A model generated the notes under the pieces. That model saw only the letters and a program-made list of their open reading frames with translations, made no database searches and had not been told where the DNA came from. A program made the translations under genes and the position numbers. Shown here in pieces: positions 40,601 to 46,600 of a stretch of DNA of 64,000 bases. Position 1 is the first letter of the stretch; each line of letters starts with the position of its first letter. This DNA is from Paraspadella gotoi. Lineage: Eukaryota > Animalia > Chaetognatha. The stretch covers positions 9,602,432 through 9,666,431 of the forward strand of contig CM119263.1 in assembly GCA_051294375.1 (NCBI GenBank), given 5' to 3'.

Positions 40601-43600
40601 GAGGCAGCCCAAGTTTGGACCACGATCTCAAGAGCCGCGACGTTATGAACACGTCGTTGGAACCCGTCGTCTGGAACGACATCAACTCCAGGCGACAATC
40701 AAATGTGGACGCCGATGGATTCAAGGACTTGAGGTGGGAAAGGAAGGAGCGACGAGATGGTTCTTATATTATTTATTATTAGGTGATATATATATATAAT
40801 ATATAATTGTACTATCCAGCGATCTCTTGCTTTTTCTCCCTGAGGCTCATGCTGTTGGCACTGGCTGGTGAATGAGTCCGCTGTGAAGAAACTGATTTTT
40901 AATAGACGTTTACAAATAGACCAACCAATCAGAAAAAATTTAAATTAGAATAAATTAGCATTACAACACTTTAAACTATGTAAAAATAGCGTACTTGAGC
41001 TTTTTGGAAGAACGGAGTTGCCTGTAATGCACATTAGCAAGATAGGTGGGGCATCTCACCTGGCTTTGGGGACTTCGGACCCTCAGTGTCACACAATGAA
41101 CATACCCACTTACCCAATTACCCATACGAGACAATGATTTGTCCAAAGGCAAAATTGTAAGAATCAGCTTCCTCCCTCAAACAGTTCTTCCCTCCCTTCG
41201 TCATCCGATGCCAAACTCCCTTCCACTTCGGACGCCCTCGGTTTCCCTCTCTCCACTCACGGACTCAACTCGTCTCAAGCGTTGACCTCAGCCGCGTTCA
41301 ACGCCACCGCCGTCTCCGCCTCCTACCACCTACAGCCACACCACCACCGACCCGCCTTCGACGACCGCCCGCCGGACGTTCATCCAACTTCGTCATCCAT
41401 CTTCGATCCGACTCCGCCGCTGCTGCGTCCGCGCCCGATGCCGTTCGTCGCAGCGGCGCCGCCGTCTCTGCGTCACTCCGAGGCGTCGTCGATGGCGCCG
41501 GAGGCGGCATCGTCTGCGGTCGCCGCCGCGGACGAGCAGCGCGGACCGTATTATTACAGGTAGTGACGGTTCCTTCGTTGCTCGTGCTAAAACGGTCACG
41601 TTAAAAGTGATGCAACGAGTTTAATTAATACTTTATATTAAGGAATGACACAGATCAGGGTAAGTTAACGCTTTTCTTTCATTTTTCTTCAGATCGGCCT
41701 CGTCCTCCAACTTTCCGCCGCCACCGATCGGACTCTTCTCAGAAGACGAAGGCGCCTCCAGCTCCTCGCCAGGTTAGCAAGAATTTGATTTCAAATTGTC
41801 AAATTATATATATTATTTTTAAACTATATATGTGTGGCTTTGTAAAAATCATTATGAATCAAAATTTTCTTTTTTTCATTTCGTGCCAAAGTTAAGAATA
41901 ACATTAACAATTGAATATTCCCCTCGTTCGTTGACAGGATCCCACGCCAAGCACAACGAGTCTATCTACTCGGCGCCTCCTGATCTCTACTCCAAAACCG
42001 CCAAGACTTCCGCGGACTACTGGGACATAGACGACGAAGTTATGCTGGCTGAACTCAACGAAGCAAACGGTTTGTTTATTTTTCTAACAAGGAACGAATT
42101 CAAATAGATTTAAAATTTATATTCTCAAGATGTGGTAGAGATGAACCTGGACGAAGTCATCATCGATGACGAGGTTGAGTCGACCGCCATTTTTGATTTG
42201 GAGGAAGAAGAGAGGGCGGCGTTATGCACTTGTGGAGTAGCCAGCCTCACTGTGGGCGATGAACAAAGGAGCAACGTGGATAATAGAAAACGCAGTAAGT
42301 TGATTCTTCAATATCTGCTATCTTATCAGTATTCTTGGATATTGAATACAATTACTTTCTTTCAAAGATTTATTTACATAATACGTATATGATACAAACG
42401 TTGAGGCGAATTACGACCGGTCTTTCTTTCTAGATAAGAACCTTCCTTTCTCCTCTCCTCAATCGAGGATACTAGATTGGATAAGTATTAAGTATAACAA
42501 TAAAAATCAGGAGTAAATATTATCATTATGGTACCTAACATTTACACTAGGCCATTGGCAATTTGTTTTTTTAAAGTCATAGACAGAAACGTGGCAATTT
42601 TTTTTTTTTTTTTTTTTTTTTTTGTTAAAGACTGGTCAAAAACAGAAAAGCATAAGTACCAGATTAAAAATATTGGAATTACCGACTGGCACGAAGGAAA
42701 GGAGAGAGGAAGGTTCTCGTAAGAAAGGCCGGTCGATAAGCGTTCATTTTTTTAACAAGTTAATTTATCATGGGGCTAACAATGTATGAATTTTTAGTGC
42801 TTTTCTGCTATATATGTACTTAATTTATCGAGAAAGACACCCCAACATCGAATGAATTAAATTTCGACCTTGTACGTAAATAACAAATTCTTCATTTTCA
42901 AGAATTTACAACAAAATACATGAAGAGGCCTCCACAGCATCAAACGATATTTCGATCCTTTCAGTGGCATCATGAATCATAATGCGACAAGTCTGGTGTT
43001 CATGTTTTCCGTAATTTGACACATGAACATTCATATTTTCATTGACAAAATCTTTCAATTTTTTTTCCATTGCCCTTATATTCCAACTCCCACCTTTATC
43101 GCACATAATTTTTGCATAAGCTGCTATATGGAGCATTACACGATGGGAAAACCTTGTCCCTGGGCCGTTTTCAGTTAGATGATACTCTATCTCCGATTTC
43201 CAAATATGACTTTTCTCTAGCGTGATCAGACAATTGGTAATCTTAAAACCATGACCTTGCCAATGACCAATAGGATAAAACAACGAAAACATTTCTTCAG
43301 TCGACCTCGACAGTCGATTCAGGGTTATTGATGCGCCATTTGAGAAGGTAGAAAAAAATTCATTTCTCACAGGTTTCCAAATATCGAGCATATTTTGTGA
43401 GGGATCCACCGGGTTGACCAACAGTGGTACTTCATTTAATATAGCCGATGATTTTTCATCGGGAAAATCTGTGGATCCTTTAAAAAAGATAGTCGCCCGC
43501 TTCATATCTTGAACTATGCGTAGGAAAATATAAAGTGCATTAGCATGAGACGGAGATATATTCTTAGCTGCAGCTCTTCTCTCTTCTTCCATTCCGGCCG

Positions 43601-46600
43601 CTACCCCTAGAAGCTCAAATATGAAGGACATTCCCCAAACTTTGGGCACGAAAAATACGGTTTGCGTCCAAAACTTGGCCAAACGCGCGATATCGTGGCA
43701 AAATTTGCTTCTTCTGGCCATCCAGTTAGCGCTCTGAGAAGACGCATTCATTTCCCAAGGATTGTCATTGAACGAATGAAGGTCTCTCTGAAACTGAAGT
43801 CTTGAAGTATTGTCTCCTTTCTGGTGTGTGTAGACTTGATTCTTAACGGCAACGATATCGAAATCAACCCCGTCGTACGTGAAAGAGAGAAGAAATTCCG
43901 TTTTACGAATCATATCCTCTCGCAAATACGTATTATTCAATAGAATATTCTTCCATTCGTTAAGCGCGCTTATTCGTGAAATACTGTTATCCCTGTCATT
44001 GTAGTAAATCACAGCATCGATGTCCGTTTTCAAGCTGGTCGAGGTACACTTTTCAAAACCACCGACGACGAGGCATCGATCCAATCCAATCGTCGAATTT
44101 CGTTTCAGAAGCTCAAATATCGAATGTGGTGCTTGCACGAGCCGAGCATTGCCATCTATTGGAGGGACCAAGCGATTCAGAAAATATTTGTATGGCTCGG
44201 TCAAGCCTAGAAAAAAACAAGAACCGCTAAGTTCAAGATGTTGCCCAGCAATAACTTTATTTTATGAGAGCATTCTCATATGATCATGTGAATATACAAA
44301 TATACAAAAAATGTGACCATATTTTTATATGGTTTCGTGACTACACAGACGTAGACAAAAATATTAAAATCAAGTTATTTTCAAAATTCGAATAGTAGAT
44401 CATGAACAAGATTGTACCTGTGTACATTTTTAAATAAAAAATTTTTTTTTTATTTTTCAATTTTTGAATACGCCCTTATTTATACATAGTACTATAGTAC
44501 TTACCATAAAAAATGTTAAAATTTTAAAATGTTTTTATTTTTAAAAGCAGATTCGAATTCCTCTCGAAAAGTTGATAAAAAAAAATAACTCTTTTTAGAA
44601 AATTATTTTATTAAGTGGGTCAAAATCCTAAAAAAACTGTTATAGTTAATTTTTAATTTAATTTTAGCATAAAAATATCGTTTTTTTAATTTGTAGCTAA
44701 CTTAATGAAAGAATTTTTGATTAAGACTCATATTTTCTTTTATCAACTTTTTATAAGGAATTCGAATCTGCTTTCAAAACTAAAAAAAAATATTTTAAAA
44801 TTTTGACAATTTCTATGATAAGTATTATGTATAAATATGGGCGTATGTAAAAATTGAGAAACTAAAAAAATTTTTTATATGTATCAATGTTCTTTAGTAC
44901 AATATGTAAAAAGTCTTACTTGTCGCGATTTCGACCAAAATTGAAATTAGGAATTGAGTTTAAATACGGTTCATCCACATCACTTTTTAAATATTTCCAA
45001 AGTACATAAAATATTCCAGAGGCCGCAACTAATTCCCACATCTTGACTTGTAAAATTCCAAGTATTTTTTTTATAAAATTAGAAAAGTTTCTGAAAAAAT
45101 TACCAAAAACGATTATGCTTTATAAACCGAAATTAATACGTTTGAGAATAGAAATGAAAAAATTTAACGGTAAGTTTGTACTGGGAGAAAGTCATTTTAT
45201 TATTATAATTAATACACGAACAAATTAATTGTCCTTCACTTGCCAAAAGTATTTCAACATTACAAACATGGCAACCGCGGAGCTTCTTTATTTCTCAGAA
45301 ATTTCTTTGGAAAGACTGGCTTCTTTTTTTTTCTGCTGTTGAATGACGGCGACCTCTGTGATTAAACATCGTCAGACTAAACATAATTATTTACAAAAGA
45401 TCATCGATCGTTTTTCTGTTCTGCTTTTAGGTTGCGAACACAGACCGGAAGCCGGAGATAAGAAGATCCTCGGCACGGACGGCGGGAGATCCGCTCAGAG
45501 ACCCGAACCCTCGACCCTACCACGTTCCACCTCAGCTTCTATCTCTTCAGGCGAGACGTCGTATTGATATTCTTTAAAACTAGACGTGACTTTCGACGTT
45601 AAATACTCAGACAGATGCCGATGTCCAATTGTCTATATATGCGACATATTAATCATTATATGCTAGATAATGAACACAAACTAATGAAAAAGTTGGCTGT
45701 GACAATTATTATGCTGACGGCATAAATTAAAACTTGACGTACATATTCGGTTATATTAAGTTGGCATGTCGCCACAGACTACTTGACGGTTATTCTGATA
45801 ATTAGAATGCTGACGTTGTGGCGGTATATTCACACCGCCTCACGTCCACCATCCTTCAGCCAAATACATTGGCTCAGAGGGGTAACACACTATCCCAGGC
45901 GTAGTGTTCCATCCACAGTCCTAACGACTTCCCTCTGCGTTGGCAAAGCGAGACCGTCCTAGGGTAACCGCGCCAGTGACTGGAGGCGTCACTGAGGGTC
46001 GGAAGCCCCCAAAGCCAACAGTGAGATGCCCCATCCCAATGGGCATCACAGGCAACCCGGCTGTTGCCATAACGTTAAGGTTTACGACGTTCATGATGAT
46101 GACGATAAAGATGTTAAAAAACTATCCCCAGGCGGTTCTTCAGACGTCGACCCTGACTCCCCCGACGACGACGCCCGCGTTGGACTCGACTCCGGTCGCC
46201 GCCCAACCAACGCCTCCAAGGACGAGTCGTCATCTTCGTCGGAGGAGCTGCCCGTCGTCGCAGTCGCTGGGGCAGTCGGCGGAGCACTCTCGCCGGGCGA
46301 CGGTCTGCCCGGCAGCCTCAGCCGCTCGAGCTCCATCTGTTCCGAGACGGGCGAGAAGAAGCGGCGCAAGGATCGCCAGGGGGTGTTGACTGTGATCTCG
46401 GCAGCGTCATCGGCGGCGGCGCGTCCTTCGGCTTTTAGCATCGTCGCTTCGACGTCGGCGGGGGCCGCGACGCCGGAGTCGATTTCCGGCGCGGGATCTC
46501 GGTCGGGCCCAGGATCCGCCGGAAGTCGATTATTCCAGCACCGGCCTGAAGGACGCCCCCCTCCGCCGCCGAGCCTCGTCAGACATTCCGGAGTCGGCGT

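Follow-up and report, generated by a model that had tools for sequence, protein, structure and literature searches.

A transcribed, intron-nested OAS-superfamily gene ending in a CaaX box in the chaetognath Paraspadella gotoi

Known OAS enzymes and their relatives

Published work still asks what OAS enzymes do in animals that lack RNase L (PMC12737575, PMC6307210). Human and porcine OAS1 (PDB 4ig8, 4rwn) are the best reference points. RNase L, the classical 2-5A effector, is according to one account not known in invertebrates and was absent from the OAS-bearing invertebrates of its 12-species survey (PMC6307210). Human OAS1 p46 ends in the CaaX sequence CTIL. As reported for these isoforms, a CaaX box relocated human OAS1 p42 to the Golgi, Golgi co-localisation was lower when the box directly followed the common sequence, and GGTase-I prefers CaaL ends (PMC8357416). 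Human OAS2 (PDB 9h1z) carries two OAS units and is targeted to membranes by an N-terminal lipid, N-myristoyl (PMC13372824). Sponge and other invertebrate OAS proteins (Geodia, Thenea, Orchesella) are described as having no known RNase L and an RNA face with few basic residues (PMC6307210). The products of the sponge enzymes are 2'-5' homo- and heteronucleotides (PMC2852836), and dsRNA is not always needed for their activity (PMC12737575). The literature found reports neither a CaaX box nor an extra C-terminal domain for any of these proteins. The nearest bacterial relative is E. coli MS115-1 CdnC (PDB 6p80), a clade C CD-NTase of a CBASS system, which has the same fold and shows no match to a CaaX box or to the extra domain described below.

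The protein considered here shares the OAS1 fold and catalytic triad at 17-18% identity, and its tail, CILL, is likewise a C-terminal CaaL. Unlike OAS1, it carries a folded domain of ~110 aa between the core and the CaaX box and a separate N-terminal exon. In contrast to OAS2, it has a single OAS unit and no Gly2. Its direct homologues, at about 20-37% identity, form a clade of invertebrate OAS-like proteins with only automatic annotation (among them Rotaria CAF2722577.1, Tigriopus TRY80898.1 and Holothuria KAJ8024749.1). Some members end in CaaX, and none has a hydrophobic N-terminal extension.

Gene structure and transcription

The locus lies in a 64,000-nucleotide stretch of Paraspadella gotoi DNA, called the window below. 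The features are as follows.

42295..45430, plus strand: intron of the host gene, containing the whole OAS-like gene in antisense
44920..45041, minus strand: coding exon 1 (122 nt, phase 2), a 40-aa N-terminal extension with its start ATG at 45041
44207..44919, minus strand: intron (713 nt, GT..AG on this strand), spliced in run X1
44411-44903: palindromic multicopy element of ~490 nt, inside the intron 44207..44919
43260..44206, minus strand: OAS-like nucleotidyltransferase core, with GG loop, K66 equivalent, Asp codons, RLAKFW, FELL and LVNPVDP
44128..44128, minus strand: extra base, present in the window and absent from the X1 contig
44022-44024, 44016-44018 and 43857-43859, minus strand: catalytic Asp codons
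42930..43259, minus strand: extra C-terminal alpha/beta domain (~110 aa)
42906..42920, minus strand: CaaX box CILL plus stop (Cys codon 42918-42920, TAA 42906-42908)
42633..42905, minus strand: 3' untranslated region, covered by an X1 contig

The gene is transcribed from two exons, whose splicing is visible in run X1, a single run from one study that was taken as RNA on its GT..AG joints. The intron junction is covered at depth 40 with 140 letters on its shorter side, and the RNA extends upstream of the start codon to at least about 45059. Runs X2 and X3 gave no coverage of the gene. The exon 1 product, MWELVAASGIFYVLWKYLK, contains a short hydrophobic or amphipathic helix followed by basic residues.

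The original prediction described a protein ending in SSCILL, and the minus-strand genomic frame 42906-44261 does terminate in SSCILL-stop. Checking the 3' end against RNA bore this out, since CILL and its stop lie inside an X1 contig (42633-43343) in which the motif is the same as in the window. No AATAAA or ATTAAA was found in 42400-42905. The long genomic frame was rejected as the source of the N-terminus: its start at 44261 lies within the intron, and it scores below the RNA frame. The splice junction and the CILL end are on two X1 contigs, of depths 40.4 and 43.5, with an allelic bubble (43344-43398) between them, so that a single molecule carrying both is inferred. As for the host gene, one X1 record spans both sides of its intron, and four predicted exons add up to a 497-nt gap in a single open frame.

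The candidate first exon of the original prediction is thus confirmed as spliced to the main exon, but its 122 nt do not lead into the OAS frame as that frame stands in the window, where the extra base at 44128 shifts the reading and a stop follows after 71 aa. In the X1 contig, which lacks this base, both exons form one frame of 473 aa. An HMM built from homologues only gave 287.8 bits to the RNA frame, 277.3 to the genomic frame and 273.3 to the part they share. Homologues favour the 473-aa frame, so the window copy carries either a null allele or an assembly error; RNA shows the functional allele. Elsewhere in the 64-kb window the frameshift site does not recur.

That the frameshift is a true null allele, so that the species segregates for loss of function, is possible though the less probable choice, and it is compatible with the function proposed below for the intact allele. 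The base falls outside any long homopolymer and the listed coding pieces of the host gene are gap-free against X1. Furthermore, several sites distinguish X1 from the window, so X1 represents another haplotype. Against a null allele, the remaining 406 codons are free of stops and keep all catalytic residues, and the window contains N runs, showing that the assembly is imperfect.

Membership in the OAS superfamily

The prediction of an enzyme with three intact catalytic Asp positions and the OAS C-lobe motifs (RLAKFW, FELL, LVNPVDP) held up. In the 473-aa model the triad is D102, D104 and D157, accompanied by G90, K93 and K218, which cover the G[G/S] loop and the triphosphate-binding Lys, and alignment shows that the equivalents of OAS1 D75/D77/D148, K66, R210, K213 and E233 are all retained. 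A family profile search placed OAS2 first (E 2.8e-53), followed by OAS1 (about 1e-30) and bacterial CdnC (1.4e-23), with no poly(A) polymerase among the 16 profile matches or among those listed for the model of the C-terminal domain. The predicted structure (pLDDT 90.3, pTM 0.90) has porcine OAS1 as its top Foldseek match (E 2.6e-9). Fold comparison likewise ranked human OAS1 first (Z 18.1, rmsd 3.8, 266 aligned), with poly(A) polymerase tied at Z 17.5.

The protein alone reached 17.0 bits for the OAS1_C family PF10421 against a cut-off of 19.9 (E 0.0046), and a direct PDB sequence search returned nothing under E 0.37. A word-index search for homologues gave no match to the protein alone and recovered only four proteins from the alignment. 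In the ESM Atlas the top clusters were OAS1_C (score 0.95), for a protein whose recognition value of 2259 is below 2300. Across the family, PF10421 matches 63 of the 79 aligned members at E <= 0.01, whereas the Mab-21 domain of cGLR/cGAS proteins (PF03281) matches none of the 79 at that threshold. Assignment to the OAS superfamily is supported.

The CaaX tail and membrane attachment

The protein ends in Cys-aliphatic-aliphatic-Leu at a predicted free C-terminus, in the window as in the RNA contig. The Cys is preceded by Ser-Ser and sits six residues past the terminal ISFD motif of the family; there is no polybasic patch before it. The last block of the model has a pLDDT of 53-63, and such low confidence is consistent with a flexible tail. 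Geranylgeranylation of CILL by GGTase-I is predicted and likely, although the short spacing and the missing polybasic patch count against it and this sequence is not in the main text of a CaaX screen (PMC11152559).

Conservation of the motif is sparse. CaaX tails end four of 150 homologues: CVIL, CVMA, CSII (Tigriopus californicus) and CILL (in a cluster with a Holothuria leucospilota member). The Holothuria protein KAJ8024749.1 has CILL and lacks the extra C-terminal domain. Two further ends, CDWE (P0013) and CNLE (P0105), were rejected as CaaX boxes. Four in 150 is a modest enrichment, above a background of 0.0038 per position (P 0.003) and less distinct from a proteome rate of 1-2% (P 0.02-0.35). 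A Cys stands at position -4 in 6/150 homologues and at other positions in 2-5/150. Three of the four CaaX homologues sit in one clade. The tree rejects a single origin common to them and the present protein, so repeated gains within the clade are likely, and a patchy origin of its CaaX tails is supported. The idea that prenylation arose independently is borne out to this extent; since the tree included no vertebrate sequence, independence from vertebrate OAS1 is only inferred.

It is unlikely that CILL is incidental or inaccessible, leaving the enzyme soluble or held by its N-terminal helix alone. This reading draws on the short linker after the folded domain, on the 52 of 55 C-terminally complete homologues without CaaX, and on the nearest homologue (P0002, 34% identity), which lacks CaaX and the N-terminal extension alike. 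It must, however, account for a textbook CaaL after Ser-Ser on a tail of apparent flexibility, with comparable appended tails in two other branches. Chance would produce such an ending with a probability of ~6e-5 from the protein's own composition, a post hoc figure given that many genes were scanned.

A predicted N-terminal membrane anchor fared less well. The hydrophobic stretch and the basic residues after it are present, but the hydrophobic core comprises only 12 residues (mean Kyte-Doolittle 1.96; 1.09 over residues 1-18) and is short for a transmembrane helix. Its most hydrophobic 13-residue window scores 1.54, compared to at most 1.26 in the 42 homologues with N-terminal sequence, none of which has a hydrophobic extension. 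Thus, the suggestion of a doubly anchored protein is weak, and the helix could add some membrane affinity only on a tentative view.

Activation and enzymatic output

With its catalytic residues retained, the protein is very probably active. A linear 2'-5' product rather than a cyclic one is the more probable outcome, and an immune or stress role is favoured by a somewhat smaller margin of belief.

The original prediction of a dsRNA sensor like OAS1 p46 is not sustained. The equivalents of R195 and K199 are Ala (A200, A204) and that of K204 is Phe, which gives no support to canonical dsRNA sensing, and activation probably proceeds without the vertebrate K66/R195/E233 dsRNA switch. Only one of 71 aligned homologues has a basic residue in the R195 column. 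In porcine OAS1, charge-swapping R195/K199 is reported to lower dsRNA-dependent catalysis about 10,000-fold (PMC13372824), and the core of the present protein is about neutral (36 basic and 35 acidic residues). A canonical prenylated sensor in which other residues grip the RNA is accordingly improbable, even though OAS1 is the top structural match, the K66 and E233 equivalents are retained, the K199 column is K or R in 62/73 homologues, and a simulation study doubts a direct R195-E233 contact (PMC11359028).

Still less probable is a cyclic-oligonucleotide synthase with chemistry nearer CdnC, in which a partner protein would bring about activation by way of the extra C-terminal domain. CdnC proteins occupy Foldseek ranks 2-4 and reach Z 16.5 in the fold comparison, a PADLOC cyclase (E 3.8e-6) and NCBIfam CBASS_cyclase_a (E 2.2e-7) are matched, and OAS is reported to branch within CD-NTase clade C (PMC10732462). 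Yet OAS1 and OAS2 lead CdnC by at least seven orders in the profile search, the NCBIfam cyclase reaches 30.3 bits against a cut-off of 200, and the C-lobe motifs align with OAS throughout. A bacterial CBASS CD-NTase is at odds with a spliced gene in an animal-type window.

The extra C-terminal domain

The domain between the OAS core and the CaaX box has the order beta-beta-alpha-alpha-beta-beta. It occurs in 62 of 150 homologues and is common to most full-length clade members. No Pfam family was found for it. The best fold comparison is dynein-light-chain-like (LC8/Tctex-1; Z 5.4, rmsd 3.5, 76 aligned), which lies below the typical chance best of Z 7-8, and Foldseek matches have E >= 0.29. Searches of the PDB and viral structures gave nothing at E <= 0.001, which does not establish a new fold, and an Atlas search with the domain of homologue P0002 scored under 0.8 throughout. 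Speculatively, it is the part of the protein most likely to serve for input or oligomerisation. The original prediction mentioned neither this domain nor the frameshift in the window copy nor the nesting inside another gene.

Proposed function and its meaning

Taken together, these observations give roughly even chances to a transcribed, nested OAS-superfamily enzyme that is geranylgeranylated, sited at membranes and likely to make 2'-5' messengers read by some effector that is not RNase L. Geranylgeranylated CILL would place the enzyme on the cytosolic face of ER or Golgi membranes, where it would make 2'-5'-linked oligonucleotides acting on that effector. The trigger would differ from the vertebrate dsRNA switch, perhaps operating via the extra C-terminal domain.

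A broader and doubtful proposal is that a widespread invertebrate OAS branch swapped the dsRNA switch for a C-terminal sensor or dimerisation domain and repeatedly added ways of anchoring to membranes (a CaaX box in three or more branches, a hydrophobic tail in others, the N-terminal helix here), which would constitute a membrane-based nucleotide second-messenger immune pathway independent of RNase L. Repeated gain of CaaX boxes would suggest that selection has time and again favoured membrane targeting of OAS, well beyond mammals. A clade with intact catalytic residues, a common extra domain and repeated membrane tails makes product, activator, compartment and partner assayable, and Tigriopus, a copepod that can be cultured, or a rotifer could supply homologues for such assays.

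Two minor observations concern the surroundings. No Rfam family is present in 42300-46400, and a condensation-domain protein is a neighbour of the OAS-like gene.

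Gene structure and transcript

The main frame of the OAS-like gene ends, as the original prediction held, in SSCILL and a stop. Sequencing run X1 (one run from one study, the only one of 3 listed runs that covers this locus) contains GT..AG joints and was therefore taken as RNA; because one of its listed joints removes the intron below, exon 1 is confirmed.

Features of the OAS-like gene (window positions)
45041, minus strand: ATG of candidate exon 1, upstream of the main frame, opening MWELVAASGIFYVLWKYLK
44207-44919, minus strand: intron spliced in X1
42906-44261, minus strand: open frame ending SSCILL, then stop

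A separate X1 contig spanning 42633-43343 carries the CILL-stop unchanged, which bears out the predicted CILL end at the RNA level. This contig and the exon-junction contig have similar depths, with an allelic bubble between the two. In the window, exon 1 does not read into the OAS frame: it is 122 nt long, and the spliced message of this copy therefore halts after 71 aa. An X1 contig lacks one base that the window has at 44128 and gives a 473-aa product. Scored with an HMM of 78 homologues, the query left out, the RNA frame gains 14.5 bits over the shared part versus 4.0 bits for the genomic frame, and the first OAS helix is restored. Because the RNA frame fits the homologues better, the window copy must reflect either a null allele or a mistake in the assembly.

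The proposed N-terminal anchor is transcribed and spliced to the main exon in X1, but its hydrophobic core is only 12 residues long and its hydrophobicity is equaled in none of the 42 homologues with N-terminal sequence. This helix may be a lineage-specific short signal anchor or amphipathic helix.

OAS family identity and the extra domain

On its own, the protein matches OAS1_C below threshold. A full homologue scan gave 192 representatives with E <= 0.001; the best 150 of them, many being fragments, were listed. Four of 20 homologues looked up belong to named clusters: a rotifer (Rotaria), a copepod (Tigriopus californicus), a sea cucumber (Holothuria leucospilota) whose protein carries the annotation OAS2, and a fourth labeled "hypothetical protein." The query and 78 homologues picked by length and rank were combined in a profile, which matched, in order, OAS2, OAS1, CdnC, OAS3 and OASL; 63 of its members match OAS1_C and none of the 79 matches the Mab-21 domain. 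With the confidently predicted structure of the in-frame 406 aa (pLDDT 90.3), OAS1 ranks first in Foldseek. It also has the highest Z (18.1), although poly(A) polymerase draws level with it (17.5). An Atlas search agrees with OAS at 0.95, its recognition value lying slightly below threshold. Three homologues (P0036, P0045 and P0069; 970-1074 aa) have two or three matched stretches each and probably carry tandem OAS units.

The OAS core is followed in the predicted structure by an alpha/beta domain of ~110 aa (pLDDT 83.3 with the preceding helix). Its HMM matches 62 of the best 150 of 192 homologues and reaches the domain end in 55, a partly circular count given that the HMM was drawn from the same set. 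The domain matched no Pfam family and nothing in Foldseek at E <= 0.001; dynein-light-chain-like chains, the best among 48,161 at Z = 5.4, are a lead only.

Active site and RNA face

In human OAS1 numbering, assigned via profile alignment, the three catalytic aspartates reported as intact are indeed kept (D75, D77 and D148), as are K66, R210, K213 and E233; the S63 position holds Gly, a residue shared there by 25 of 58 homologues. Elsewhere, Q194 is replaced by Ser, R195 and K199 by Ala, and K204 by Phe, and of 71 homologues 1 has a basic residue at the R195 position. On dsRNA binding by OAS1, R195 exchanges with K66, and a charge swap of R195 and its neighbor lowers porcine OAS1 activity about 10,000-fold, as described in PMC13372824; simulation disputes a direct salt bridge of R195 (PMC11359028). 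Sponge OAS is reported as capable of dsRNA-free activity (PMC12737575) and as making mixed 2'-5' products (PMC2852836). Because the catalytic residues are kept, R195, K199 and K204 are replaced, and sponge OAS can act without dsRNA, the sequence makes catalysis likely and the vertebrate dsRNA switch not likely. The sensing of dsRNA in the manner of OAS1 p46 thus loses its footing, and a canonical dsRNA sensor is an unlikely reading.

The CaaX tail

Most complete homologues terminate a few residues past the last strand of the extra domain. An added tail of 9-12 residues occurs in 3 of the 55 domain-complete homologues, ending CVIL, CVMA and CSII, and a Holothuria-type homologue without the extra domain ends CILL, for a total of 4 CaaX tails among the best 150 of 192 homologues, many of them fragments. 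This count exceeds internal background (P 0.003; 4e-6 with a stricter pattern picked after viewing the data). Cys at -4 by itself is not enriched (6 vs 2-5 at other positions), and against the 1-2% proteome rate (PMC11152559) P is 0.02-0.35. A few homologues (P0148, P0143 and P0044) carry hydrophobic tails in place of CaaX.

CaaX proteins fall in three separate branches both in a quick tree (84 rows) and in a careful tree built from 34 chosen rows after trimming of the last 12 residues; a single CaaX clade is rejected (p-AU 5e-76), as is a grouping of the query with the copepod branch (p-AU 0.0034). The closest relative, P0002 (34%), lacks a CaaX box. Repeated gain is likely, repeated loss being the alternative, and we infer independence from OAS1 p46; both are put no more strongly because the careful tree is unrooted and vertebrate OAS is not among its rows.

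According to PMC8357416, CaaL is preferred by GGTase-I and a CaaX box relocated human p42 to the Golgi, but human OAS1 with a CaaX set directly after the common sequence localized poorly. The P. gotoi protein has a 6-residue linker before CaaX and lacks a polybasic patch. In yeast, CVIL, CIIL and CTIL are modified without FTase; CILL was not found in the main text of that study (PMC11152559), whose supplements may list it. A CaaX box that is present but unused seems improbable.

The homologues P0036, P0072 and P0106 start MGN, MGQG and MGSS, which we take to be possible N-myristoylation sites, as in OAS2. If so, the family would have a further membrane-targeting route.

Proposed mechanism

Most likely, the 473-aa allele would be translated, geranylgeranylated at CILL and resident on endomembranes, where a non-canonical input, perhaps involving the extra domain, would activate synthesis of 2'-5'-linked messengers. 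These would act on an effector other than RNase L, since RNase L is absent from the invertebrates surveyed in PMC6307210. A CdnC-like cyclase is an unlikely rival: OAS nests inside bacterial clade C (PMC10732462), but the protein's cyclase-family profile scores lie far below cut-off.

That invertebrates have OAS genes and that mammalian OAS1 is prenylated is already known. The available portion of the prenylation paper PMC10683996 makes no mention of invertebrates, and searches of open-access main texts turned up no entry on an invertebrate OAS with a prenyl tail or on the extra domain.

Locus setting

The OAS-like gene is flanked on both sides by exons of X1 record 1, and four predicted exons exactly fill that record's 497-nt gap, resulting in a single open frame. 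These observations place the OAS-like gene antisense in an intron of a plus-strand gene. Frames nearby that match a rhodopsin-type receptor and an ITIH domain mark the sequence as animal, and the named homologues suggest an invertebrate.

Features around the OAS-like gene
38999-48176, plus strand: host gene, long low-complexity Ser/Pro-rich product
42295-45430, plus strand: host intron enclosing the antisense OAS-like gene (X1 record 1 and exon prediction)
44411-44903: palindromic multicopy MITE-like element inside the OAS-like gene's own intron
53491-54069, minus strand: ITIH C-terminal domain exon (frame match)
56980-59188, plus strand: rhodopsin-family receptor exons (frame match)
26070-27632, plus strand: intronless condensation/alcohol-acetyltransferase-like protein, 520 aa

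The host product has several Tyr motifs (YEDPY, IYSAP and YWDID) and one acidic stretch, and a Pfam search of three scanned frames gave no match; a GC-AG intron is predicted at 45551-46128. The MITE-like element has nested inverted arms, 78-88% complementary, and many related X1 contigs. A short repeat at 45817-46072 appears SINE-like; its summed X1 depth is very high (about 19,000-25,000), other copies are flanked by A-rich sequence, and an Rfam search gave no match. The condensation-like protein has an N-terminal hydrophobic stretch followed by RRRK, and its homologues, all unnamed, were found only at 21-23% identity. At 14302-15570, near-duplicate segments on either side of an N run suggest local misassembly.
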